From positions 1-45,912 of the IMG/VR virus record IMGVR_UViG_3300045988_103468: a stretch of DNA of 45,912 bases; one strand, 5' to 3'. Every line of letters begins with the position of its first letter. Positions within the stretch are counted from its first letter, which is position 1. Below are positions 167 to 42,353 of this stretch, in pieces. The translations under genes were made by a program, and so were the position numbers. This DNA is from a virus. The notes under the pieces are model-generated. The model worked only from the letters and a program-made list of their open reading frames with translations. It was not told where the DNA came from and searched no databases.

Positions 167-190
167 TTATTGAAGTAATATATGGTTGTT

Positions 191-198
191 TATATTTG
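191..198 (+). promoter_or_regulatory. Bacteroidota-type -7 promoter box (TATATTTG) for int
   Basis: Perfect match to TAnnTTTG, 23 nt upstream of ATG 221. Confidence 0.5.
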
Positions 199-220
199 CA
201 TCCGTGCAAATATAACAATT

Positions 221-1552
221 ATGGCGACAATTTACTATTCACTCTCTGCCAAGGAAAATACATGCGGTTTACACGAGGTGCTGATTCGGTTTACTCACGG
301 ACGCCTTAACCAGCGTGCCAAGACTGGTATTTTCGTGCTGCCTGAATATTGGAGCGCCAAGACACAATCGGTTTCTGTTCCCCGTTACAGGATGATGTCT
401 CCTGCCCAACAAGAGATCGTCGAACAGGCAAACGAGGCACATTCTAAAATCTCGGCATTGACATCTTTTGTCATGCAATCGTTCATAGAGGCAGGAGCAG
501 GGAAGGTTAGCTTGCCTCCGAGTTGGCTCAGGGATGTTATTACGCCTTATTCTGTAGGATTGTCGCAAGACAGGGATATATGGGCACATTTTGAAAGTTA
601 CGTATCCAAGAAGGGGTTTTCTGAGCGCCGTAAGATGGCATTCAATGTTCTTATGAGGGCTCTCAAGCGCTACGAGTTGTACAAAAGGATTTTCGACCGC
701 ACCTTCACCCTTTCGCTGGGGATGCTAACGCCCGAGGTATTGGATGACTTTGAGGACTTTTATCGCCGGGAGCACGATATATGCGAGGAATATCCGCATA
801 TCTATGCTTTGGTGCAGGATTCGAGGATACCACACCAGCGTGGCCACAATACGGTTGTCAGCAAGATGATTCTCTTGCGGGCTTTCCTGAATTGGGCCGC
901 AAACAATGACCTGATCCAAACTAATCCTTTCCGGAAGAAGGAGATAAAACAAGCTGTATATGGTTCCCCGATCTATATCACAATCGCCGAGCGGAACAAG
1001 CTATACCATACAAACCTATCCAGGCATCAACGACTGGCGGTACAGCGGGATATATTCGTATTCCAATGTCTCATAGGGTGTCGCGTGGGGGATTTGATAG
1101 CCTTGAAACGGAGCAACGTAGTAAAAGGTGCTGTTGAGTATATCCCGCGCAAAACGAAGGAAGGCCATCCGGTGACGGTGCGTGTCCCGTTGAACAATCT
1201 TGCAAAGGAGATAATCAATAAATACGCATCCCCTGACAATGCACTACTGCTCCCCTTTATTTCGGAGCAAAAATATAACGAGGCAATTAAAAAATGCTTC
1301 CTTGCTGCCGGATTGAAACGCATGGTAAGTGTACTCAACCCCGTCACCAGGGAGCCTGAGCAAAAACCGCTCTACCAAGTTGCGTCATCCCATATGGCGC
1401 GTCGTACTTTTATCGGGAATCTGTATAAGCAGGTCAAAGACCCTAACCTTGTGGGATCTTTGTCGGGGCATACCGAAGGCAGCAAAGCATTTGCCCGCTA
1501 CCGCGACATAGACGAGGAGATGAAAACCGACCTGGTGAAACTTCTGGAATAA
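221..1552 (+). CDS. int: Tyrosine recombinase / phage integrase
   Basis: ORF 182-1552. Start moved to ATG 221 (MATIYYSL...) because the -7 box lies inside the longer ORF. Catalytic pattern visible: GCRVGDL (Arg), SSHMARRTF (HxxR), GHTEGSKAFARY (His..Tyr). Adjacent to attL. Confidence 0.9.
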   Translation: MATIYYSLSAKENTCGLHEVLIRFTHGRLNQRAKTGIFVLPEYWSAKTQSVSVPRYRMMSPAQQEIVEQANEAHSKISALTSFVMQSFIEAGAGKVSLPPSWLRDVITPYSVGLSQDRDIWAHFESYVSKKGFSERRKMAFNVLMRALKRYELYKRIFDRTFTLSLGMLTPEVLDDFEDFYRREHDICEEYPHIYALVQDSRIPHQRGHNTVVSKMILLRAFLNWAANNDLIQTNPFRKKEIKQAVYGSPIYITIAERNKLYHTNLSRHQRLAVQRDIFVFQCLIGCRVGDLIALKRSNVVKGAVEYIPRKTKEGHPVTVRVPLNNLAKEIINKYASPDNALLLPFISEQKYNEAIKKCFLAAGLKRMVSVLNPVTREPEQKPLYQVASSHMARRTFIGNLYKQVKDPNLVGSLSGHTEGSKAFARYRDIDEEMKTDLVKLLE

Positions 1553-28031: not shown

Positions 28032-28460
28032 TCACAGGTTTTCCGTTAATTCATCTTGCTTTTTTTCGACTGCACCCATTCTTCGAGAGAGGACTTCACC
28101 ATCACCCTTCTGAGTTAATCGTTCAATGATTGCAGTTTGGTTCGCCACTACTGCAGTCACTTTTGCGAGCTGCTCTTTCAGGGTGTTGATGTAGTCCTGT
28201 GTAAGTGGATCCATCTCCTGAATTTTTGTTGAGTTAGTAATAGGGTTATCTTTTGGGGTTTCCCCGGTTTGGTTTTGAATGATATATCTTGATATTATAT
28301 CGCCATATTTAACCTTTAGCCTTTCTATATGCTCCTCTTTTATTTCTCGTTTCCCATTCATCATTGCTGATATCTGCGATTGAGCTACACCTATAACTTC
28401 GCTTAAATCTTGTTGTTTAAGCTGCATGTCAAAGGCAAACTTCTTAATATCTAATAACAT
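28032..28460 (-). CDS. CI-like repressor (XRE-family HTH)
   Basis: ORF 28032-28916 trimmed to MLLDIKKFAFDMQLKQQDLSEVIGVAQSQISAMMNGKREI (XRE HTH), with a C-terminal coiled-coil-like part. Divergent from the early operon. Confidence 0.8.
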   Translation of the reverse strand: MLLDIKKFAFDMQLKQQDLSEVIGVAQSQISAMMNGKREIKEEHIERLKVKYGDIISRYIIQNQTGETPKDNPITNSTKIQEMDPLTQDYINTLKEQLAKVTAVVANQTAIIERLTQKGDGEVLSRRMGAVEKKQDELTENL

Positions 28461-28510
28461 ATGGAAATTGACAATATTATAATAATTATTTATACAAAAT
28501 ATCTTTATAA

Positions 28511-28529
28511 ATCTTGATAATATCAAGAT
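28511..28529. promoter_or_regulatory. Operator: perfect palindrome ATCTTGATA-A-TATCAAGAT
   Basis: 9-bp arms, flanked by direct AAAATATCT repeats (28496-28504 and 28530-28538). Immediately upstream of the early -7 box. Confidence 0.6.
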
Positions 28530-28537
28530 AAAATATC

Positions 28538-28545
28538 TATATTTG
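28538..28545 (+). promoter_or_regulatory. Early rightward promoter -7 box (TATATTTG)
   Basis: Perfect TAnnTTTG, about 115 nt upstream of ATG 28662. Confidence 0.5.
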
Positions 28546-28661
28546 CAATGTGAAACCCACAAAGCTGATACAAATATACGATTTAAGATGAAAAACGCAA
28601 GCGTGGGGACTGAATATTTGACGATTGTACCTTTTTGAAGGTAATAAAAACGGACAACGCG

Positions 28662-28904
28662 ATGAAAGCAACTTACGACAAATCGAAGATCATGAAGAAC
28701 GCCTGGTACCTTAAAAAGGTACAGCCGGGCAAGAGTTTGGGGGATTGCCTGCGCAAGGCTTGGCGCAACGAGAAGTTGGCGATGCTGACCGCGAAGATCG
28801 AGAACCGCCCGACGGAGCAGCCGAAGGCCACGGAGTACCGCCCCGAACTGCTGAAAGTGCCGACAGGTTTCTATGGTGTCCGAGGAATGTACTATGGTGA
28901 CTAA
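28662..28904 (+). CDS. First early-operon protein (Cro/antirepressor position), function unknown
   Basis: ORF 28635-28904 begins at TTG. The first ATG is at 28662 (MKATYDKSKIMKNAWYLKK...). Confidence 0.55.
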   Translation: MKATYDKSKIMKNAWYLKKVQPGKSLGDCLRKAWRNEKLAMLTAKIENRPTEQPKATEYRPELLKVPTGFYGVRGMYYGD

Positions 28905-28917
28905 AGCACGATGCAAT

Positions 28918-31910: not shown

Positions 31911-33131
31911 ATGAATTACGGATTACCTTATAAGGGTTCTAAGAATAGTATTGCGAAATGGGTTATTTCGAATCTTCCCGCGTCGCATACGTTCGTGGAT
32001 TTGTTCGCCGGAGGATGTGCGGTAACTCACGCTGCCATATTGTCTGGTAAATTCGGACGTTTCATTGCAAACGATATTACGGAATATCCCCAAGTCTTCC
32101 GTGATGCCATCGATGGGAAATACCGGAATGAATGTCGATGGATCAGTCGGGAGGATTTCCTCCGTCTCAAAGATGACGACCCCTACGTGCGTCTTTGCTG
32201 GAGCTTTGGGAACGATATGAATACATATATGTATGCTCCGGAGGTTGAGCGGTTCAAAAAACACATGCACGCGATATTTTCCGCGGGAACGCCCACGAGC
32301 GCGCGGTTGGCATGGAAAGGATTTGTCCGGGAATTTGCAAAAGTCCGTGATAAAATAGGAGAGCTGACGCAAAAGGTGCTGAAGTTGTGCGCAGCGTGCG
32401 ACGTGGCACCTCAATACAATGCGGACGGCACATTGAATACAAAGGCGATACATACAGATGTTTTTCGGGTTAAATCAGCGTATTTGCGAAAATATTTACA
32501 GAACGCCCTGAAATTATCCGGTCTTACGCAAAAAGATGTCGACCGACGCCTTGGGAATTATATGGGTAGGCATTATTTTAGCGAATCTCAATGGATGTTG
32601 CCATCCTCTGAACAATACGAGAAGTTGCAAGAAATTTTACCGGCGTTAACTATTCCGTGGGCGCCCTTAAACGAAAGTCTGCAAAGTCTGGAAAGACTGG
32701 AAAGTCTGGAAAGTCTGGAAAGTCTGCAAAGTCTGCAAAGTCTGGAAAGACTGGAAAGACTGCAAAGTCTGGAAAGACTGGAAAGTCTGCAAAGTCTGGA
32801 AAGACTGAAACTGTCCCGAAAGGATTACAGCGATGTTGCTATACCGCCGGGCGCGACGGTATACTGCGACCCGCCGTATGCTAACACGTCGGGGTATATC
32901 GACGATTTCGACCATGAACGATTTTATAGATGGCTGCGCAGCATGGAATTCCCGGTGTTCGTTTCGGAATATTCCATGCCGGACGACTTTATATGCTTTG
33001 CGAGTATTGACAAAGCATGCACCTATTCATCATCAAAAACGATAAAACGCGTAGAAAAGATGTTCGTACACGAGCGGTGGGCGGATGCTGTGAGGCGTCC
33101 GGATGATAATGTTCAGGGGCGGCTGTTCTAA
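31911..33131 (+). CDS. dam: Dam-like (D12-class) N6-adenine DNA methyltransferase with an inserted tripeptide-repeat segment
   Basis: N-terminal LPYKGSKNSIAKW and FVDLFAGGCAV (motif I). C-terminal VYCDPPYANTSGY (motif IV). 406 aa, longer than typical Dam because of an HTH-like segment plus 15 tripeptide repeats between the motifs. Confidence 0.8.
   Translation: MNYGLPYKGSKNSIAKWVISNLPASHTFVDLFAGGCAVTHAAILSGKFGRFIANDITEYPQVFRDAIDGKYRNECRWISREDFLRLKDDDPYVRLCWSFGNDMNTYMYAPEVERFKKHMHAIFSAGTPTSARLAWKGFVREFAKVRDKIGELTQKVLKLCAACDVAPQYNADGTLNTKAIHTDVFRVKSAYLRKYLQNALKLSGLTQKDVDRRLGNYMGRHYFSESQWMLPSSEQYEKLQEILPALTIPWAPLNESLQSLERLESLESLESLQSLQSLERLERLQSLERLESLQSLERLKLSRKDYSDVAIPPGATVYCDPPYANTSGYIDDFDHERFYRWLRSMEFPVFVSEYSMPDDFICFASIDKACTYSSSKTIKRVEKMFVHERWADAVRRPDDNVQGRLF
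32676..32810 (+). repeat. 15 x 9-bp in-frame tandem repeat (AGTCTGGAA / AGACTGGAA / AGTCTGCAA variants)
   Basis: Counted unit by unit. Encodes SLQ SLE RLE SLE SLE SLQ SLQ SLE RLE RLQ SLE RLE SLQ SLE RLK. Confidence 0.95.
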
Positions 33132-33218: not shown

Positions 33219-33722
33219 ATGGATGACATTACCCGCGTCTGCCGCAAATGCGGGCAGGAAAAGCCGTTGGAAGAGTTTGTAAAAGATAAGACCCGCGAAT
33301 TAGGTTATAGTTATACTTGCAAACATTGCAGACGAGAACACGCCTGTAAGTATCGTGCTGATAACCACGAAAAGGTACTGGAACGCACCCGCAAGTGGCG
33401 AGTTGATAATCCCGAAAAGGTGCGGGAGTATGACCGCAAGTATCGTGCTGATAACCACGAAAAAATATTGGAATATGGCCGTAAGCATTATGCTGAGAAT
33501 TCCGAAAGGTACAATAAATATTCCCGCAAGTGGCAGGCCGCTAATCCCGAAAAGGTGCGGGAAACACGCCGATATCTGCGCGAGATATTGTCTGACGGTT
33601 ATTTAAGGCGTCAACTAAAACGACGCAACCTCCCCGTAACCCCAGAAACAATCGACTACAAACGTATTCAACTAAAGTTATACCGAGAAATCAAAAAACA
33701 ACAAAACGATGAAAGAGATTAA
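33219..33722 (+). CDS. Zinc-ribbon protein with internal KYRADNHEK / NPEKVRE repeats
   Basis: N-terminal CRKCG..17..CKHC. Two near-identical nucleotide segments (GTATCGTGCTGATAACCACGAAAA and CCCGCAAGTGGC..TAATCCCGAAAAGGTGCGGGA) each occur twice. Confidence 0.65.
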   Translation: MDDITRVCRKCGQEKPLEEFVKDKTRELGYSYTCKHCRREHACKYRADNHEKVLERTRKWRVDNPEKVREYDRKYRADNHEKILEYGRKHYAENSERYNKYSRKWQAANPEKVRETRRYLREILSDGYLRRQLKRRNLPVTPETIDYKRIQLKLYREIKKQQNDERD

Positions 33723-34711: not shown

Positions 34712-35134
34712 ATGGACACGCAATATTACACGACTACCACGTCCCCGGTGCTGACGTTCGAAGAGTATTATGATATTCCGAGCGAACATATAACGGGTCA
34801 GCGGACGCCATTCTCCCAGAGGGCCAGAACGCTGATGGAGGTAGACCTAAAGTTGATTTATCGGGCTATCCGCGAAGCCATTCAGAAGGATATGCGCGGT
34901 GACGAAGACAAGCGGGTCTATACGGTGGCCTACAAAATATACGACATCAAAGCGATCCATCACTACGAAGTCCACGAAGAACAAGGTGGTGACAGCTATA
35001 TGGATATTTGCGAGACCTATTTCAAAGTAGACCGCGATACCATCGAAATCATCGAGGTCAAGGATATCGACGGTGGCATGCACGCCGGGCAGTTGCACCG
35101 GCTAAAAGAATACGGAGAACAAAACAACTTATAA
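34712..35134 (+). CDS. Hypothetical protein
   Basis: 140-aa ORF, acidic, first gene of the recombination module. Confidence 0.6.
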   Translation: MDTQYYTTTTSPVLTFEEYYDIPSEHITGQRTPFSQRARTLMEVDLKLIYRAIREAIQKDMRGDEDKRVYTVAYKIYDIKAIHHYEVHEEQGGDSYMDICETYFKVDRDTIEIIEVKDIDGGMHAGQLHRLKEYGEQNNL

Positions 35135-35136
35135 CC

Positions 35137-35784
35137 ATGGGAATCTATAGCAAACTGCTGGAAATCCAGAGGAGCGTCAGGGCGTTGCTTCCGAATGCTG
35201 ATGGAAATAATTACAAGTACATCAGCGGTTCGAAAGTACTTGGCATCGTCCGTCCCAAGATGGACGAACTCGGTGTGATCCTCAAAACGGAGGTTCTCGA
35301 CATCACAAATATCCGTCAGGATTATACCGTAGGCCGGGATCAGCGACCTAAATCCGAAATCCTATCGAGTGTAAAGATGCGTTTCACTTGGATTGACGTG
35401 GAATCCGGAGAGAAGGATGTATGCGAATGGAGCGCCAACGGGCAGAATGATTGGGACAAAGGTGTAGGCTCGGCAATGACCTACGGGGAGCGTTATTTCA
35501 TTCTCAAATACTTTCATATAGCCACTGATGAAGATGACGTAGACCGGCTGCCTCGGCATGAGGATGTCGGCCCGGCTTCCAAGCCTACGCTTACTGACGA
35601 ATTGCTGACTTTGGACTTGTTCGAAGAGATAATCAAGGCTAAGGAAAACGCCAAAGGAGCCAATAAGCGATTCTCATTAGTCGGATTCTTGGAGTCCAAG
35701 TATATCGTCGATCAAGAAATGCTTCCGAAAGTCAATGTCAAAGTTACCGAATATTACAATTTAACGAGGGAAAATAAAGCATGA
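35137..35784 (+). CDS. erf: ERF-family single-strand annealing recombinase
   Basis: Start at MGIYSKLLEIQRSV. YKYISGSKVLGIVRPKMDELGVIL and GSAMTYGERYFILKYF are typical ERF patterns. Followed by ssb. Confidence 0.75.
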   Translation: MGIYSKLLEIQRSVRALLPNADGNNYKYISGSKVLGIVRPKMDELGVILKTEVLDITNIRQDYTVGRDQRPKSEILSSVKMRFTWIDVESGEKDVCEWSANGQNDWDKGVGSAMTYGERYFILKYFHIATDEDDVDRLPRHEDVGPASKPTLTDELLTLDLFEEIIKAKENAKGANKRFSLVGFLESKYIVDQEMLPKVNVKVTEYYNLTRENKA

Positions 35785-36245: not shown

Positions 36246-36418
36246 ATGTATCCAATTCCGATATGCGCAGGGTGATTCGGGCGATTGATATGCTTCGTCC
36301 GCTCCCTGAACAATCCACGCGCGAGTGGGATGCCATCCGCAGGTTAAAAATATTCGCCAAAAAACAACAACGAAAATATGGTAAACAAGGTCATCATCAT
36401 CGGGAATGTAGGTTCTGA
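36242..36418 (+). CDS. Possible 58-aa ORF
   Basis: Translated by hand: MNVSNSDMRRVIRAIDMLRPLPEQSTREWDAIRRLKIFAKKQQRKYGKQGHHHRECRF. Overlaps the ssb start by 41 nt. Confidence 0.35.
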   Translation: MNVSNSDMRRVIRAIDMLRPLPEQSTREWDAIRRLKIFAKKQQRKYGKQGHHHRECRF

Positions 36419-36773
36419 TCCCGAAGTTCGTGTATTGGACGGGGGCGCCAAGGTTGCCAGCCTGAGTGTGGCGACGACCGACCGTTACACCGACAGGCAA
36501 ACAAAAACCGTAAAGGAGATAACGGAGTGGCATCATGTGGTGGCGTGGCGCAATACCGCGGATATCGTGGATAAATACGTGAAGAAGGGGGCGCAGATTT
36601 ACGTCGAAGGTCGGTTGCGAACCCGCGACTATACCGACCGAGATAGCATCAAACGATACATCACGGAGATCATGGCCGATACGGTCAGGATTTTGGGGCG
36701 CAGGGAATCCCAGGCTTCATGCACCTCTACTACCTCCCAAATGCAATCTGACCCCGACGATCTTCCCTTCTAA
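36378..36773 (+). CDS. ssb: Single-stranded DNA-binding protein
   Basis: MVNKVIIIGNVGSDPEVR...WHHVVAWR...IYVEGRLRTR (OB fold) and an acidic C-terminal tail DPDDLPF. Confidence 0.9.
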   Translation: MVNKVIIIGNVGSDPEVRVLDGGAKVASLSVATTDRYTDRQTKTVKEITEWHHVVAWRNTADIVDKYVKKGAQIYVEGRLRTRDYTDRDSIKRYITEIMADTVRILGRRESQASCTSTTSQMQSDPDDLPF

Positions 36774-36776
36774 GCC

Positions 36777-37148
36777 ATGGATACATCTGAACTTAAAGAG
36801 ATCGAGGAAATGCAGCTCTTCATTGAAGCAGAACCGCCTACTGAGCCGCAGGCAATTTCACAGCGCATGTCAGAACTGAGTGTGCGTATGGCGCGTAGCG
36901 GCTATCTCCTGTCGAAGGCGAAATACGAACAGGAGTTGGCGATGCTGAAAGCCTCCCGGCTGAAAGACCTGATACCTCTGGCGCCGAGTATCCAAAAAGA
37001 AATACTTCGGGCGTCCTGTGCCGAGGAGAACAAGGTCGTTAACATGCTCGACAGGATCAACCGCACGTGTGTCCATCAAGTAGACATACTACGTACGCAA
37101 CTGAGTTTCGAGAAGGAGCAGATGCGCCAAATAGGCTATAACGCATGA
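36777..37148 (+). CDS. Hypothetical protein
   Basis: 123-aa ORF. Confidence 0.6.
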   Translation: MDTSELKEIEEMQLFIEAEPPTEPQAISQRMSELSVRMARSGYLLSKAKYEQELAMLKASRLKDLIPLAPSIQKEILRASCAEENKVVNMLDRINRTCVHQVDILRTQLSFEKEQMRQIGYNA

Positions 37149-37516
37149 CAGATTTAGAACGGGAATACGACCGTGTTTTCAGCCTTTTTATACGTCATCG
37201 AGACTGTCCGGGTGGGCGAGGTTTCTGCATCACCTGCGGGGCGCCCATAGCGCCTGAAACATGCGATTGCGGGCACTATATAGACCGAGCTCACAGGTCT
37301 ACGAGATGGGACGAAAGGAATTGTCACGCCCAATGCAGGGTTTGCAACAGGCATTCTGCTGGTCGCATTGGAGTTTACCGCCAAGTACTGATCCGAAAAT
37401 ACGGACTTGCAGTCGTTGAAGAACTTGAACGCAGTAAGCACAGCGTATTCAAAATGTCGAGGTCGGAGATGTCCGATAAGATCAATTATTACAAACGATT
37501 AATTCGCAATGTGTAA
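37145..37516 (+). CDS. ninG: NinG/Rap-like recombination endonuclease
   Basis: CITCG..CDCGHYIDRAHRSTRWDERNCHAQCRVCN pattern, typical of lambda NinG. Confidence 0.7.
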   Translation: MTDLEREYDRVFSLFIRHRDCPGGRGFCITCGAPIAPETCDCGHYIDRAHRSTRWDERNCHAQCRVCNRHSAGRIGVYRQVLIRKYGLAVVEELERSKHSVFKMSRSEMSDKINYYKRLIRNV

Positions 37517-38396
37517 CACTTCAAATAACAGTTGGATTAAGATGTACCGCAGCTTCCTCGATTGGGAGTGGTATCCGGATACGAACTGCGTACGGCTGGC
37601 ATTGCATTTCATTTTGAAGGCAAATTACCGGGCCAAGAAGTGGAAGGGTTTAATCATTGACCGCGGACAATTGGTAACCAGCAGAGGACAGCTGTCCGAA
37701 GAGACAGGACTTTCGGAGATGCAAATACGCACCGCAATAGACAAGCTGGATAATTGCGGGTTTATAACCAAGTCGGGAACACGCAAATATACTATCATAA
37801 CTGTCTGTAATTATGACTTATACCAACAAGCACAGGATGGTTTTGATAATGGTTGTCAACCAACAGATAACCAACAAACAACCAGCAAACAACCAACAGA
37901 TAACCAACAAATAACCACAACTAAAGAATATAAGAAAGAAAGAATAGAAGAATATACACACACACTGGTAGATACTAAAAAGGGGGTTGTAGGGGGAAAA
38001 GAGACGGAGGCCGTGGAACTCATAGAATGGATCGCCACGAACGCGCCATGTATTGCTTCGATGCCCGAGCCCATAACTGCGGGACAGGCCGTGTGGCTGT
38101 TGCAGGACTACAACGTGAAAGATATTCGCCGATTGATAGCCACCATGCAAAGCAAGCAGGCATACCTCAAACACACGAATGCCTATACGGCTTTTGTCAG
38201 TTACGCAAACCTCGACAAGGCGCTTAAAGATGGCCGGCCGCCAAGTGTGCAATCTGGGAAAAAGTATTATACACGGGATGAAGCAATGGCCTATATTCGA
38301 TTCCGTCGTTTGGGCGGCTCTCTTAAAGATAATTTCACTCTTGAGCGTGTGAATGGGCAGCATTTGTGGTGCTTGAAAGCCCCAGTTAACCTTTAA
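37509..38396 (+). CDS. Putative replication initiator / replisome organiser (winged-helix N-terminal domain)
   Basis: WIKMYRSFLDWEWYPDTN...RGQLVTSRGQLSEETGLSEMQIRTAIDKL, a central repeat/low-complexity linker and a C-terminal domain. Position follows the recombination genes. Confidence 0.6.
   Translation: MCNTSNNSWIKMYRSFLDWEWYPDTNCVRLALHFILKANYRAKKWKGLIIDRGQLVTSRGQLSEETGLSEMQIRTAIDKLDNCGFITKSGTRKYTIITVCNYDLYQQAQDGFDNGCQPTDNQQTTSKQPTDNQQITTTKEYKKERIEEYTHTLVDTKKGVVGGKETEAVELIEWIATNAPCIASMPEPITAGQAVWLLQDYNVKDIRRLIATMQSKQAYLKHTNAYTAFVSYANLDKALKDGRPPSVQSGKKYYTRDEAMAYIRFRRLGGSLKDNFTLERVNGQHLWCLKAPVNL
37857..37922 (+). repeat. 2 x 33-bp tandem repeat inside the initiator gene, followed by an AT/purine-rich tract (37921-37966)
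   Basis: CAACCAACAGATAACCAACAA begins at 37857 and again at 37890. Encodes QPTDNQQTTSK QPTDNQQITT. Confidence 0.85.
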
Positions 38397-38407
38397 CGAA
38401 CGATAAA

Positions 38408-38470
38408 ATGAAAGTCATAGTCACCTTTTCGGGTGGGAAAGACAGCTGCATGAGTTATTACGGATTATGA
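38408..38470 (+). pseudogene. 20-codon in-frame internal-deletion ghost of the PAPS-reductase-like gene
   Basis: MKVIVTFSGGKDS|CMSYYGL* joins the first 13 codons and the last ~7 codons of 40569-41465. The flanking 65 nt (38383-38447) match 40544-40608 with 3 mismatches. Confidence 0.7.
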
Positions 38471-39627
38471 CTATGAAATTACGAGTATTCACAAGTTTTT
38501 CCGGCTATGACAGTCAGTTGATGGCTCTTCGGGACATCGGCGCGGACTACGAGTGCGTGGGCTGGTCGGAGATTGACAAATGGGCGATTAAGGCTCACGA
38601 TGCAGTATTCCCGGAGCTGGCAGACCGAAATTACGGCGACATCACGAAAATCGATTGGGACGTCGTTTCGGACTTCGATCTGTTCACCTACTCGTTTCCG
38701 TGTACCGACATCAGCAGCGCCGGAGAGCAGAAGGGTTTCGAAGAAGATTCGGGCACCCGTTCATCCCTGTTATGGGAATGCCGTCGGCCGATCGCGGCCA
38801 AGCATCCTAAATTCCTGCTGATGGAGAATGTGAAAGCCCTCATATCGGAGAAATACCGTCCGCTGTTTCTCAAATGGGAATCGTGGCTTCGCTCGCTCGG
38901 TTATGTCAATTATACGGAAATACTCAACGCCAAAGATTACGGCGTCCCGCAGAACCGGGAACGTGTATTTATGCTCTCCATTCTTAACGGCTGCTGGTAT
39001 GAATTCCCGCATCCGGTCAGGCTGGAAAAGCGGCTGAAAGACGTATTGGAATTGGAGGTAGACGAGAAGTATTATCTGAGCGAAACAATGCTGAAATTTC
39101 TGCAAAAGCAGACAGGCCGAAATGAACCGTTTAAGCCTGCAAAAATAGCCGATCTTAATGGTGTTGCCATGACGATAAATGCAAGAGCACACAAAATAAG
39201 CAAACAGGATAATTATGTGATGCAGATCGGCGCAACGAAGCAAACGGACTGGAACCGACAGCAATACCGGGTATACGATCCGACTGGCACCAGCCCGACG
39301 ATAACGACGAAATCGGGCAGCGGACTTGAACCGAAAATCCTGATGCGGGGACGCGGCTTCAACAAAGGCGGCGAAGCGGATCTTCCCGGAACGATTACAG
39401 GCAGCGCGTGGGAACAAAACAATCTGCTGGACTATGCCGGCTGCATCCGCCGCCTTACGCCCCGCGAGTGTTTGCGGCTGATGGATGTTTCGGATAGTGA
39501 CATTAACAAGATACAAGCTGCGGGAATCAGCGATACACAGCAGTACAAGCTGGCCGGAAACAGTATCGTAAAGGCCCCGATGATGGGGATATTTGAAAAC
39601 ATGTTGAGATACGGATTATGCGAATAG
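38467..39627 (+). CDS. DNA (cytosine-5)-methyltransferase
   Basis: Motif I FSGYDS, motif IV FPCTDIS, motif VI LMENVKAL, motif VIII QNRERVF, motif X AGNSI. Confidence 0.9.
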   Translation: MTMKLRVFTSFSGYDSQLMALRDIGADYECVGWSEIDKWAIKAHDAVFPELADRNYGDITKIDWDVVSDFDLFTYSFPCTDISSAGEQKGFEEDSGTRSSLLWECRRPIAAKHPKFLLMENVKALISEKYRPLFLKWESWLRSLGYVNYTEILNAKDYGVPQNRERVFMLSILNGCWYEFPHPVRLEKRLKDVLELEVDEKYYLSETMLKFLQKQTGRNEPFKPAKIADLNGVAMTINARAHKISKQDNYVMQIGATKQTDWNRQQYRVYDPTGTSPTITTKSGSGLEPKILMRGRGFNKGGEADLPGTITGSAWEQNNLLDYAGCIRRLTPRECLRLMDVSDSDINKIQAAGISDTQQYKLAGNSIVKAPMMGIFENMLRYGLCE

Positions 39628-40496
39628 GTTTGGTTGACATAGACGGTCACCACTTCCCGAACCTCGCGCTGATGAAACTGTCAACTTGGCATAAAGCGCA
39701 GGGTGATTCGGTAGAGTTCGCCGACCCGATGTTCGGTCGCTACGACCGGGTTTATATGTCGAAGGTTTTCACTTTCACGCCCGATTGTCCGGACATCTAC
39801 CATTGCGAGGTGATCCGGGGCGGGACGGGATTCCGGGACTATACGACGGTATTGCCCGGTGAGATCGAGCATATTTGCCCGGATTATTCGCTGTACGGAG
39901 TAAATGAAGCCTACGGATTCCTTACCCGCGGCTGTCCGAACCGCTGCCCGTGGTGCATTGTTCCGCACAAAGAAGGAGCCATCCGGCCCGCGTCTCCGCT
40001 ACGGGAGTTTATCGGCGACAAGCGCCGGGCTGTATTGCTCGATAACAACGTGCTGGCATCGGACTTTGGGCTGGAACAGATCGAGGAAATAATCCGCATG
40101 GGCATCGCGGTTGATTTCAACCAAGGGCTGGATGCCCGGAGGGCGTGCGATGATCCCTACATCCTCGACCTGCTGGCGCGGGTGAAGTGGATTCAGCATA
40201 TTCGGTTCGCCTGCGACCGGATGTCCCAACTGGAGGCGGTTACAAAGTGTGTCAAAGAGTTGGGACGCCGAGGTATCAAGCCATATCGCATTTTCGTCTA
40301 CTGCCTGATACAAGATGTCGATGAATCATTGGAGCGGATCAACGCCCTGCGTAAATTGAAAGTCTGCCCGTTTGCCCAGCCTTACCGGGATTTCGATAAT
40401 AACATTGAGCCGACGAAGGAGCAAAAACGGCTGGCGCGTTGGTGTAACCATAAGGCTATTTTCAAGAGTGTTGAATTCAAAAACTACAAATTATGA
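39618..40496 (+). CDS. Radical SAM enzyme, substrate unknown
   Basis: TRGCPNRCPWC is CX3CX2C. 292 aa. The ATG is embedded in the 16-nt junction and overlaps the MTase end by 10 nt. Confidence 0.75.
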   Translation: MRIGLVDIDGHHFPNLALMKLSTWHKAQGDSVEFADPMFGRYDRVYMSKVFTFTPDCPDIYHCEVIRGGTGFRDYTTVLPGEIEHICPDYSLYGVNEAYGFLTRGCPNRCPWCIVPHKEGAIRPASPLREFIGDKRRAVLLDNNVLASDFGLEQIEEIIRMGIAVDFNQGLDARRACDDPYILDLLARVKWIQHIRFACDRMSQLEAVTKCVKELGRRGIKPYRIFVYCLIQDVDESLERINALRKLKVCPFAQPYRDFDNNIEPTKEQKRLARWCNHKAIFKSVEFKNYKL

Positions 40497-40568
40497 CAGA
40501 CCAAGTAACGAGCATCGAGCAGTCGAAGAAGCCCCAGTCCCCTCAGTTAACCTTTAACGAACGATAAA

Positions 40569-41465
40569 ATGAAAGTCATAATCACCTTTTCGGGTGGCAA
40601 GGACAGCCTTGCATCGCTTCTTTGGACGCGCGAACATATCACCAAGAACTTTACGACCGTGTTTTGCGACACGGGGTGGGAGCATCCGTTGACCTACGAG
40701 TACATCAACCGGATCGCGGATAAGCTCCACTTGGATTTGGTGACGCTCAAGTCGAAGAAATACGACGGGATGGTCGATCTTGCCCGGCAGAAAAAGCGTT
40801 GGCCCTCGACGCGGGCGCGGTTCTGCACGCAGGAATTGAAGACGAAGCCCTGTATCGACTACGTGCTGGACGAGGTGCAGGACAATATGCTGATGATACA
40901 GGGCATCCGGGCAGCAGAATCGGCCAGCCGGGCGAAGATGTCGGCGCAATGTACGTACTTCAAGTACTATTTCGAGCCTTACGGTTACGACAAAAACGGC
41001 AAGCCGAAAAAGCACACTTATCGGGGCAAGGAGGTACGGGCATTCCGGGAGAAGTTCGCCGACGATTTGCTTCGGCCCGTGTTTGACTGGTCGGCGCAGC
41101 AGGTAATCGACTACATCCTCGACGCAGGATTGGAGCCGAACCCGCTCTACAAAATGGGCTACAAACGTGTCGGCTGCTGGCCGTGCGTGATGGCGAATCA
41201 GCGGGACATCCTCAATATTGCCCAGCAGGCCCCGGAGCGGATAGACTACATTGCCAAGATTGAGCAGGAATTACAATGCGGCGACCGGTTGCGTTCAGAA
41301 TTTTTCGGCCCGGACAAAATACCTGCCCACGCAATCACCAGCGGAGAGAAATATCCGACGATTCATGATGTCGTGCGCTACGTCCAATGGCAGAATGCGA
41401 CGGGCAGCCTATTCGACGACGATACAGCGACCAGTTGCATGAGCTTTTACGGATTATGCGAATGA
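40569..41465 (+). CDS. PP-loop ATPase of the PAPS-reductase-like family
   Basis: N-terminal MKVIITFSGGKDS (SGGxDS PP-loop) and later RVGCWPC. 298 aa. Confidence 0.8.
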   Translation: MKVIITFSGGKDSLASLLWTREHITKNFTTVFCDTGWEHPLTYEYINRIADKLHLDLVTLKSKKYDGMVDLARQKKRWPSTRARFCTQELKTKPCIDYVLDEVQDNMLMIQGIRAAESASRAKMSAQCTYFKYYFEPYGYDKNGKPKKHTYRGKEVRAFREKFADDLLRPVFDWSAQQVIDYILDAGLEPNPLYKMGYKRVGCWPCVMANQRDILNIAQQAPERIDYIAKIEQELQCGDRLRSEFFGPDKIPAHAITSGEKYPTIHDVVRYVQWQNATGSLFDDDTATSCMSFYGLCE

Positions 41466-41941
41466 ATATGAAAACGGACAAACTGATCTTGGATGCCTGC
41501 TGCGGCCCACGTATGATGTGGTTCGACAAGCGGAACCCGCAGGCTGTGTTCATGGATATTCGGGACGAAGAGCATATACTCTGCGATGGCCGGAGTTTAG
41601 AGGTGCATCCGGATGTAATCGGAGACTTTCGACGTATACCGTTCGAGGATGCAACATTTCGGCTTGTTGTGTTCGATCCTCCACACCTTGTCCGTCTTGG
41701 CGACAATAGCTACATGGCGCACAAATACGGCAGATTGTTCCCCACATGGGAAACCGATCTAAAGCAGGGGTTCGACGAATGTATGCGAGTATTGAAACCG
41801 GAAGGGGTTTTAATCTTCAAGTGGTGCGAAGAGCAAATACCCGCAAGCCGAATCATCGAAATTTTCGGAGTGGAGCCGCTGTTCGGCCACAAGAGCGGCA
41901 AGAACTCCAAAACGCAGTGGATGTGTTTTATGAAAAATTAA
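41456..41941 (+). CDS. SAM-dependent methyltransferase, probably DNA N6-adenine/N4-cytosine type (DPPH motif)
   Basis: LILDACCGPRMMW (motif I-like) and LVVFDPPHL (motif IV-like). The start is either ATG 41456 or ATG 41462 (ATGA overlap). Confidence 0.65.
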   Translation: MRMNMKTDKLILDACCGPRMMWFDKRNPQAVFMDIRDEEHILCDGRSLEVHPDVIGDFRRIPFEDATFRLVVFDPPHLVRLGDNSYMAHKYGRLFPTWETDLKQGFDECMRVLKPEGVLIFKWCEEQIPASRIIEIFGVEPLFGHKSGKNSKTQWMCFMKN

Positions 41942-42341
41942 ACACAAAAGATAACCAACCATGAAAACACTTTATCTCTGGGTTTCAGACAAAGGCTGGA
42001 CACCCTTTCAGTACAATGAACTTTCTGAATTATCCCCCGAATTTGAGGCGCGCAATATCAAACTGGGCGACGGGTGCGAACTGGGCGACGGGTGCAAACT
42101 GGGCGACGGGTGCGAACTGGGCGACGGGTGCGATGTTCCGAAATCGCTATTTATCAGCGCATCTCGTCATACAGTATCCTATTGGGGTGAGGATGTTATT
42201 CAAATAGGCTGCAAACGCTACACCATTTCCGAGTGGCAGAAGCATTTCCGAAAAATTGGCGAGGCCGAAGGCTATAGTCCCGAGCAGATGGAGGAATACA
42301 AAGGGTATATAGACCTGATCGCTGCAATGCACAAGACGTGG
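41938..42341 (+). repeat. 404-bp direct repeat, copy B
   Basis: See 29834-30237. Confidence 0.9.
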
Positions 42342-42353
42342 GCGTTACACTAA
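41961..42353 (+). CDS. Hypothetical protein with LGDGC hexapeptide repeats, paralogue B
   Basis: 130 aa, near-identical to 29857-30264. Confidence 0.75.
   Translation: MKTLYLWVSDKGWTPFQYNELSELSPEFEARNIKLGDGCELGDGCKLGDGCELGDGCDVPKSLFISASRHTVSYWGEDVIQIGCKRYTISEWQKHFRKIGEAEGYSPEQMEEYKGYIDLIAAMHKTWALH

Follow-up and report, generated by a model that had tools for sequence, protein, structure and literature searches.

Phage genomes are mosaics, and the joints between their parts seldom reveal how they were made. The modification island of one 45,912-nt viral sequence, IMG/VR record IMGVR_UViG_3300045988_103468 (the whole of which is referred to here as the window, with positions in full-stretch numbering), contains three gene boundaries that share a short sequence, in its complete form a 16-mer. 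The 16-mer is the coding end of a PP-loop/PAPS-reductase-like gene, PPL; it also ends a neighboring C5-methyltransferase (C5-MTase) gene, M5Ca. The best explanation, which we consider probable, is that the conserved PPL tail and the first 13 PPL codons with the spacer ahead of them have served as patches of identity at which recombination moved, inserted and deleted neighboring genes, the likeliest agent being the phage's own Erf-type protein.

The closest described systems are of several kinds. Short conserved boundary ("linker") sequences between the modules of lambdoid phages belong to the modular theory, as far as it is presented in Pope et al. 2011 (PMC3029335; refs 21-22 therein). The window resembles these in having a short sequence common to the junctions of different gene pairs in related temperate phages, a sharp change of identity at these junctions, and a nin-like early region where genes overlap and NinG is encoded. 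It differs in that the linker is an enzyme's functional C-terminal tail, coding and of ordinary synonymous variation, in that the hosts are Bacteroidales and not enterobacteria, and in that a crossover at this site seems to be needed for some junctions only. (The preliminary description of this DNA had proposed a fit to the linker model; the shared junction sequence and the sharp, reticulate switches bear this out, but conservation of the DNA beyond its coding does not.) In mycobacteriophage Island3 the adjacent genes gp67 and gp68 share their C-terminal 18 residues (~50 bp), which has been explained by recombination between repeats (Pope et al. 2011, PMC3029335). There, as here, an unrelated gene bears the C-terminal codons of its upstream neighbor, and the gene between the copies is present or absent among relatives; in contrast with the ~50 bp of Island3, the repeat measures 16 nt, or 11 nt in the window, and contigs that carry it number more than 100, with a variety of partners and with a ghost allele of the donor gene.

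Erf-family recombinases act efficiently on short, diverged sequences (De Paepe et al. 2014, PMC3945230). Genes for an Erf-family single-strand annealing protein, SSB and a NinG/Rap-like protein are present in the window, and its mosaic joints lie at short, slightly diverged homologies, as might be expected of the Rad52-like recombinases (Red-beta, RecT, Erf, Sak) treated there; the published assays used longer substrates, however, and the activity of the window's Erf protein and its use of 16-70-nt homologies are predictions from sequence. Integron cassettes (attC x attI, IntI) are likewise single genes that lie between copies of a short sequence, that form an array of varying content in a fixed place, and whose expression depends on signals upstream. 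Here, unlike in integrons, a structured attC-like site is lacking, most genomes have no dedicated integrase, and the repeat is a coding tail; a tyrosine recombinase is found within the island in two relatives only (L027 and L067), and the integrase of the window lies 37 kb away, at the prophage end. Exchange at this locus is most likely by general or annealing recombination. The locus is a clear example of known short-homology phage mosaicism, closely parallel to the Island3 case; it is set apart in that the boundary is a functionally constrained protein tail, that a ghost allele is widespread, and that the support from populations is unusually rich.

The hypervariable island of DNA-modification genes sits between the replication initiator gene (Ini) and the late genes. 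Its features in the window are as follows (all on the plus strand).

37509-38396: DnaD-like replication initiator / helicase loader, Ini (phrog_2514, E 8e-27)
38380-38446: repeat copy 1 (5' handle), comprising the end of Ini, the spacer and PPL codons 1-13; 67 nt, 94%
38408-38470: ghost open reading frame (ORF) of 20 codons, PPL codons 1-13 fused in frame to the last 7, with GACAGC joined to TGCATG at 38446/38447
38443-38477: 3' handle copy 1, PPL tail remnant and M5Ca junction; 35 nt, 83% to 41432-41466
38459-38469: junction copy 1, the 16-mer with CGAATG (6 nt) deleted
38467-39627: C5 cytosine DNA methyltransferase M5Ca (PF00145, E 5e-56), its last 5 codons (YGLCE) taken from PPL
39610-39625: junction copy 2, exact 16-mer; M5Ca tail overlapping the rSAM start
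39618-40496: radical SAM protein rSAM (phrog_9298, E 4.5e-90, residues 1-290 aligned to profile positions 1-291), with a CxxxCxxC motif
40493-40567: second ghost, a chimeric ORF of 24 codons, c0 codons 1-12 (40493-40528) followed by the end and stop of Ini (40529-40557)
40541-40607: repeat copy 2, remnant of the Ini 3' end, then the spacer and codons 1-13 of the intact PPL
40569-41465: intact PAPS-reductase-like PP-loop protein PPL, the source of YGLCE (PF01507, E 1.7e-29, residues 3-207; phrog_424, E 2.8e-57)
41448-41463: junction copy 3, exact 16-mer; PPL tail overlapping the sMT ORF
41456-41941: small SAM-dependent DNA methyltransferase sMT (phrog_954, E 2e-77)

The 16-mer, TACGGATTATGCGAAT, encodes YGLCE and a stop codon, and overlaps the start of the next gene. 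It is exact at 39610-39625 and 41448-41463, with no further match in the window at two or fewer mismatches (0.04 expected by chance; two matches in 0 of 100 shuffles); the 11-mer TACGGATTATG is exact at 38459, 39610 and 41448. The recurrence at three junctions noted in the preliminary description is thereby confirmed, as are the shared ends of M5Ca (NMLRYGLCE-stop) and PPL (CMSFYGLCE-stop). Other details required adjustment. The longer repeat had been given as 65 nt with 3 mismatches (38383-38447 and 40544-40608); the repeat is real, but over that length there are 4 mismatches, at 38420, 38437, 38440 and 38447. With 3 mismatches it is 64 nt long, and repeat finding extends it to 67 nt. The downstream ATG had been taken to be embedded in the junction sequence throughout; it is demonstrably the true start for rSAM only, because rSAM residue 1 aligns to position 1 of phrog_9298, whereas the MTase genes have an ATG of their own 5-11 nt downstream. 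In relatives L041, L073, L080 and L118 the full 16-mer stands at the ghost-to-MTase junction. The direct repeats of the window predict deletions of 1151, 1838, 2161 and 2989 bp; of these, the 1151-bp deletion would remove M5Ca, and the 2161-bp one would leave Ini-PPL-sMT.

The nature of the 16-mer follows from the gene that it ends. In the PAPS reductase (CysH) superfamily, a catalytic cysteine is located in the C-terminal tail, in an ECGLH motif. PPL has the corresponding features of the PAPS reductase / PP-loop ATP pyrophosphatase superfamily, a PP-loop of the SGGxDS type at its N-terminus (SGGKDS, residues 8-13), a PAPS_reduct domain and a conserved, cysteine-bearing extreme C-terminus; the relationship to CysH is remote, however, and the tail motif of PPL is C-x-S-x-[YF]-x-G-L-C-E. 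Among structures in the PDB only remote matches are found (1sur, E 2e-6), in an alignment that ends at residue 202 and leaves the tail uncovered, and NCBIfam places PPL in no named equivalog (CysH, DndC, CysD), the scores lying far below cut-offs (for DndC, 31.6 vs 290 bits); rSAM is likewise without any NCBIfam match above cut-off. PPL homologues down to 34% identity, from prophages of Bacteroidota and beyond (including the genome contigs L201-L249), end in C-x-S-x-[YF]-x-[GNS]-[LI]-C-E-stop. This suggests that the two-cysteine C-terminal tail may be functionally essential. The ORF containing PPL is 377-482 residues long in L002, L006, L046, L070, L083, L096 and L107, which could reflect in-frame fusion to the upstream gene or merely an in-frame upstream ATG.

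A set of 69 PPL genes chosen by protein similarity (85-100% identical), and thus unbiased with respect to the 16-mer, separates the peptide from its DNA. YGLCE is invariant in 69/69, while the exact 16-mer is present in 34. A variant without the embedded ATG, TACGGATTGTGTGAGT, accounts for another 23, all 23 of which are followed by one common downstream gene, and the remaining 12 have other synonymous forms (five synonymous variant classes in all). In a codon alignment of the 50 unique PPL genes, synonymous diversity is 0.31 for the last five codons and 0.36 for the first 13, as compared with 0.30 for the whole gene; conservation of either handle at the nucleotide level, beyond coding, is not detected in this alignment. 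Since the tail motif is kept to 34% identity and its DNA varies synonymously, the 16-mer is the coding sequence of a protein tail that is a hallmark of the family, and no dedicated DNA linker. The preliminary description had held that its proposal of exchange at the 16-mer would fail if the 16-mer were simply a C-terminal peptide conserved by selection on the protein, with synonymous variation. The 16-mer is such a peptide; yet the tail has apparently served as a recombination joint as well.

The joint can be read in M5Ca. The native forms of this gene end, after ENMLR, in FNS-stop (9 copies) or LNN-stop (4 copies); ~20 copies end in YGLCE-stop, and the switch falls exactly after MLR. Because the native ends are FNS and LNN, the YGLCE of M5Ca is the scar of a joint with the end of PPL, in place of its own last three codons. 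M5Ca also behaves as a unit. Relative L042 corresponds to the window minus 38470-39609, with flanks 98.3% and 98.7% identical and with alignments that overlap by the 11 nt of the 11-mer, the breakpoints falling within the repeat; of the island genes of the window, M5Ca alone is missing. In L073 and L080 a full 16-mer lies on each side of M5Ca. When M5Ca-rSAM and M5Ca-c0 junctions are compared, the left 150 nt are 100% identical and the right 150 nt 22%; when M5Ca-rSAM is compared with ghost-rSAM, the values are 26% on the left and 97% on the right. M5Ca and PPL are each found with rSAM and with c0, which gives all four combinations, in the manner of a four-gamete test. The copies of the 16-mer bound M5Ca alone, and the preliminary suggestion that the MTase and rSAM entered as a pair at the repeats is not sustained; the 67-nt repeat on the right of this pair is a joint of another kind (below).

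These observations bear on a model of the type proposed by Hendrix, according to which the 16-mer has no role in recombination, being simply a conserved gene end next to which independent illegitimate joins are found, with selection for compact junctions that preserve genes bringing every breakpoint to a place directly behind the stop codon. The conservation of the tail motif to 34% identity with synonymous variation is what such a model would predict, as is the finding that synonymous sites in the handles are no more conserved than those in the rest of PPL. Joints elsewhere in the region are illegitimate or at plain ATGA overlaps (the c0-Ini joint at 40528/40529; the boundaries of L027 at 38400 and 40488), and the whole operon is tightly packed, with overlaps of 4-10 nt. 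The difficulty is with M5Ca: the same illegitimate break after MLR would have to have arisen independently for each downstream partner, and the model does not explain why M5Ca is present or absent, with limits that coincide exactly with the repeat, between genomes that are 98% identical. We regard this model as unlikely.

How widely the 16-mer marks junctions was surveyed by an exact scan of viral contigs, which yielded at least 119 stretches, with 125 sites classified by their upstream gene; the architecture search took in 258 loci. Among the matches listed, the upstream gene is a close PPL at 52 sites, the ghost at 28, M5Ca at 18, a distant PPL at 11, and a further truncated PPL-like ORF at four. 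The remaining 12 are unclassified; eight are apparent chance matches and four are real junctions with the upstream gene cut off or disrupted. At the 113 non-chance sites, three upstream kinds meet at least 10 downstream kinds, which include rSAM, M5Ca, a second C5-MTase, sMT, c0, k3, k9, k15, k25 and k45, and the stop codon at the 16-mer co-varies with the downstream partner. The expectation that the 16-mer would flank varied genes in related phages is thus borne out in more than 100 viral contigs, and so is that of alternative cassettes at the same site, exemplified by L042 without M5Ca, by the recombinase and HNH genes of L027 and L067, and by Ini-ghost-sMT in L012, L018 and L060. The predicted relative with a single intact junction (Ini, intact PPL, sMT) was not found among the 258 loci, which included five with Ini-PPL followed by other partners and the three with Ini-ghost-sMT. 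The region downstream of Ini is a hotspot of methyltransferase shuffling. The islands of L002-L120 hold at least seven DNA methyltransferase families (two C5, phrog_954, three N6_N4 and one Dam-like), and also a pentapeptide-repeat protein and a protein with the N-terminus MTYIGIDT... that is RuvC-like by eye and matched no Pfam family.

Almost all of these relatives are short-read assemblies of strain mixtures, and contigs that are chimeric at shared repeats might be suspected. The repeat of 16 nt is shorter than the usual assembly k-mer length, the same architectures recur in at least 16 metagenome IDs and in GenBank MT835567.1, and all three junctions lie within the window itself. Assembly artefact is rejected on these grounds as scarcely credible.

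The survey also bears on the possibility that a large ancestral island has merely decayed, different genes having been deleted between short direct repeats in different phages and none having been gained or exchanged. Remnants are indeed common (the PPL ghost, the c0 remnant, and rSAM remnants in L005 and L013), direct repeats of 11-16 nt flank M5Ca, so that its loss would need only slippage or single-strand annealing, and L012, L018 and L060 have the architecture, Ini-ghost-sMT, that the 2989-bp deletion would give. However, the 16-mer is missing from the 3' end of most partner genes, and deletion mediated by the repeat therefore cannot put them after it. Gene order varies as well: g141 and g190 stand in the reverse order in L046 relative to the window, and PPL follows rSAM in the window but precedes it in L007. 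In L027 and L067 the slot is taken by unrelated content, a tyrosine recombinase with HNH. Deletion as the sole process is accordingly judged improbable.

The ghost, which is 20-22 codons long among the phages compared, has a distribution of its own. Its translation in the window is MKVIVTFSGGKDSCMSYYGL followed by a stop, and alignment to PPL codons 1-13 and the last 7 supports the preliminary reading of it as a PPL gene with the interior removed. It is found at 44 sites, in the window and in 43 other viral contigs (at least 16 metagenome IDs), as 15-16 haplotypes, always with GACAG(C/A) joined to TG(C/T), in frame in 44/44, and ahead of seven different genes. The 20-codon form in the window (the 16-mer minus CGAATG) is common to ten contigs, always ahead of M5Ca. 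The ghost was inherited and not produced in the window genome. Ghost and full-length alleles sit in backgrounds whose flanks are 96-99.7% identical; the ~150 PPL 5' ends comprise 104 of full-length genes, 44 of ghosts and only 2 of other truncated forms. Codon changes specific to the ghost are nonsynonymous in 5/5 cases, at residues invariant in full-length PPL, so that the peptide itself is unconstrained; these changes fit a scar rather than a functional peptide. In-register microhomology at the ghost joint is limited to CAGC, and the haplotypes of the handles, which are short, fit a single origin with spread as well as recurrent deletion. The ghost, we infer, is kept in frame because this would preserve translational coupling to the next gene.

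A bolder interpretation would make the ghost a maintained "adaptor" mini-ORF, an empty docking site that keeps the PPL start, the stop-start coupling and both handles, and the island an integrase-free cassette platform run by Erf. The rarity of other truncations and the in-frame joint in all ghosts fit this interpretation, but a single old deletion that spread would fit them too, and we think the adaptor interpretation doubtful. Remnants of rSAM with internal deletions, in which the first ~7-13 codons are fused to later sequence, lie just after the 16-mer in L005 and L013; ghost-type decay is thus not confined to PPL.

The right-hand repeat stems from an illegitimate joint, different in kind from the joints at the 16-mer. 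In relatives the gene downstream of rSAM is c0, which encodes a protein of ~135 residues beginning MxxQVTSIEQSK. In the window only the first 12 codons of c0 are left; at 40528/40529, with GAAG as the microhomology, they run into the last ~27 nt of Ini, behind which come the spacer and then an intact PPL. Colinearity of L097 and L011 with the window extends to 40528. The 5' boundary sequence (CCAGTCCCCTCAGTTAACCTTTAACGAACGATAAA-ATG), which is made up of these last ~27 nt of Ini and the spacer, is an Ini 3' end that travels with PPL or the ghost, and it is found downstream of several unrelated genes. L027 and L067 have the same c0-Ini joint, and everything to the right of it is 99.7-100% identical to the window; where the window has ghost-M5Ca-rSAM, they have a tyrosine recombinase and an HNH endonuclease, the swap being bounded at 38400 and by the stop/start overlap AAATTATGA at 40488. 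The inserted pair (L027 7079-9316, and the same region in L067) consists of a tyrosine recombinase (PF00589, 345 residues) and an HNH_3 endonuclease (217 residues) in a genome otherwise 99% identical, and may be a small mobile element.

A tyrosine recombinase inside the island calls to mind site-specific, integron-like exchange of cassettes with the 16-mer as the core site of a recombinase. The integrase of the window (182-1552) and the identical 16-nt direct repeats around M5Ca in L073 and L080, which resemble a target duplication, could be cited in its favor. The 16-mer has no dyad symmetry, however, and the three junctions and the 5' boundary fold no better than shuffled sequence (z 0.17-0.99); the lack of hairpin or dyad disfavors a site-specific system. 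The recombinase is present in the island in only 2 of ~120 loci, the 16-mer is a coding tail with synonymous variation, and the boundaries of exchange are heterogeneous. This mechanism is largely refuted and is considered highly improbable.

The mechanism that we favor, recombination at the PPL tail and 5' handle, would proceed as follows. Selection on the protein would keep the YGLCE tail constant, so that related phages would have a short stretch of identical sequence in common. Recombination there, and in the similarly conserved first 13 codons with the spacer upstream, would move, insert or delete adjacent genes; the likeliest agent is the annealing protein of Erf type that the phage itself encodes, acting in co-infections or when lysogens are infected. 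Occasional illegitimate joints and repeat-mediated deletions would contribute too. Comparison of sequences brings out the joints and their distribution (the acquisition of the tail, the presence or absence of M5Ca, the breaks in identity, the ghost allele with both its handles and the c0-Ini joint); the Erf-like protein as the responsible enzyme is what we infer from them. Parsimony would require a crossover within the 16-mer for the M5Ca-YGLCE junctions and for M5Ca presence/absence, and does not require it where PPL itself meets its various partners.

Several considerations weigh against this mechanism. At most of the PPL-partner junctions the 16-mer may simply mark the end of homology, a crossover there being possible anywhere in the 0.9-kb PPL gene, so that the 16-mer need not be the site. 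Sixteen nucleotides is very short for homologous recombination. The exact 16-mer is found in only 34/69 of the unbiased relatives, the synonymous diversity of the last five codons (0.31) is close to the gene-wide value (0.30), and neither handle shows conservation beyond coding in the 50-gene alignment. M5Ca presence/absence can be accounted for by deletion between direct repeats alone, and the variety of genes following the ghost could come from repeated deletion in genomes in which PPL preceded these genes, instead of from exchange. The relatives, finally, are nearly all short-read metagenome contigs.

The wider context is that of a temperate siphovirus-type phage or prophage of gut Bacteroidales, with genes for terminase, portal, major head and tape-measure proteins. 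PPL has relatives in Bacteroidota prophages (70% identity in Phocaeicola massiliensis, 71% in a Bacteroidaceae genome), and the sole match in GenBank at megablast level is MT835567.1, an unannotated human-faecal phage scaffold. The genes of the early operon are tightly packed, with overlaps of 4-10 nt or gaps of 1-19 nt, and those for the Erf-like protein, SSB and NinG lie 1-3 kb upstream of the modification island. The remaining features are the following.

182-1552: integrase
28032-28916, minus strand: repressor
at 31911: DNA methyltransferase of the rightward early operon
at 33219: endonuclease VII/HNH protein
35008-35784, plus strand: Erf-like single-stranded DNA annealing protein (phrog_155 / phrog_2324, E 2e-24)
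36378-36773, plus strand: SSB (PF00436, E 3e-34)
37145-37516, plus strand: NinG/Rap-like protein (PF05766, E 1e-22)

Two genes contain repeats of other kinds. Within Ini, five iteron-like repeats with 11-nt spacing (CAACCAACAGATAACCAACAAA...) at 37857-37928 are probably the replication origin. At 38380-38396, 9 nt that most relatives have are missing, in frame, from the Ini gene of the window, the deletion lying between short repeats (CCCCAGT...CCCTCAGT), and its product ends in LKAPVNL where most others end in LKAPVPSVNL. The hexapeptide-repeat gene at 41961-42353 contains an 18-nt tandem repeat, CAAACTGGGCGACGGGTG, at 42059-42148; the copy number is variable, giving a protein of 130 residues in the window and 136-268 elsewhere, with extra copies in L027.

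For abundant phages of the human gut, the locus is an unusually readable case of mosaicism, in which illegitimate and homologous joints lie next to each other. It indicates that the tail of a protein, while under functional constraint, can also serve as a handle for recombination, and a tail used in this way would help phages to reshuffle their anti-restriction DNA-modification genes. It also provides a system for gauging the shortest homology usable by an Erf-type recombinase, and for asking whether mini-ORFs preserve translational coupling in phages of the Bacteroidales.

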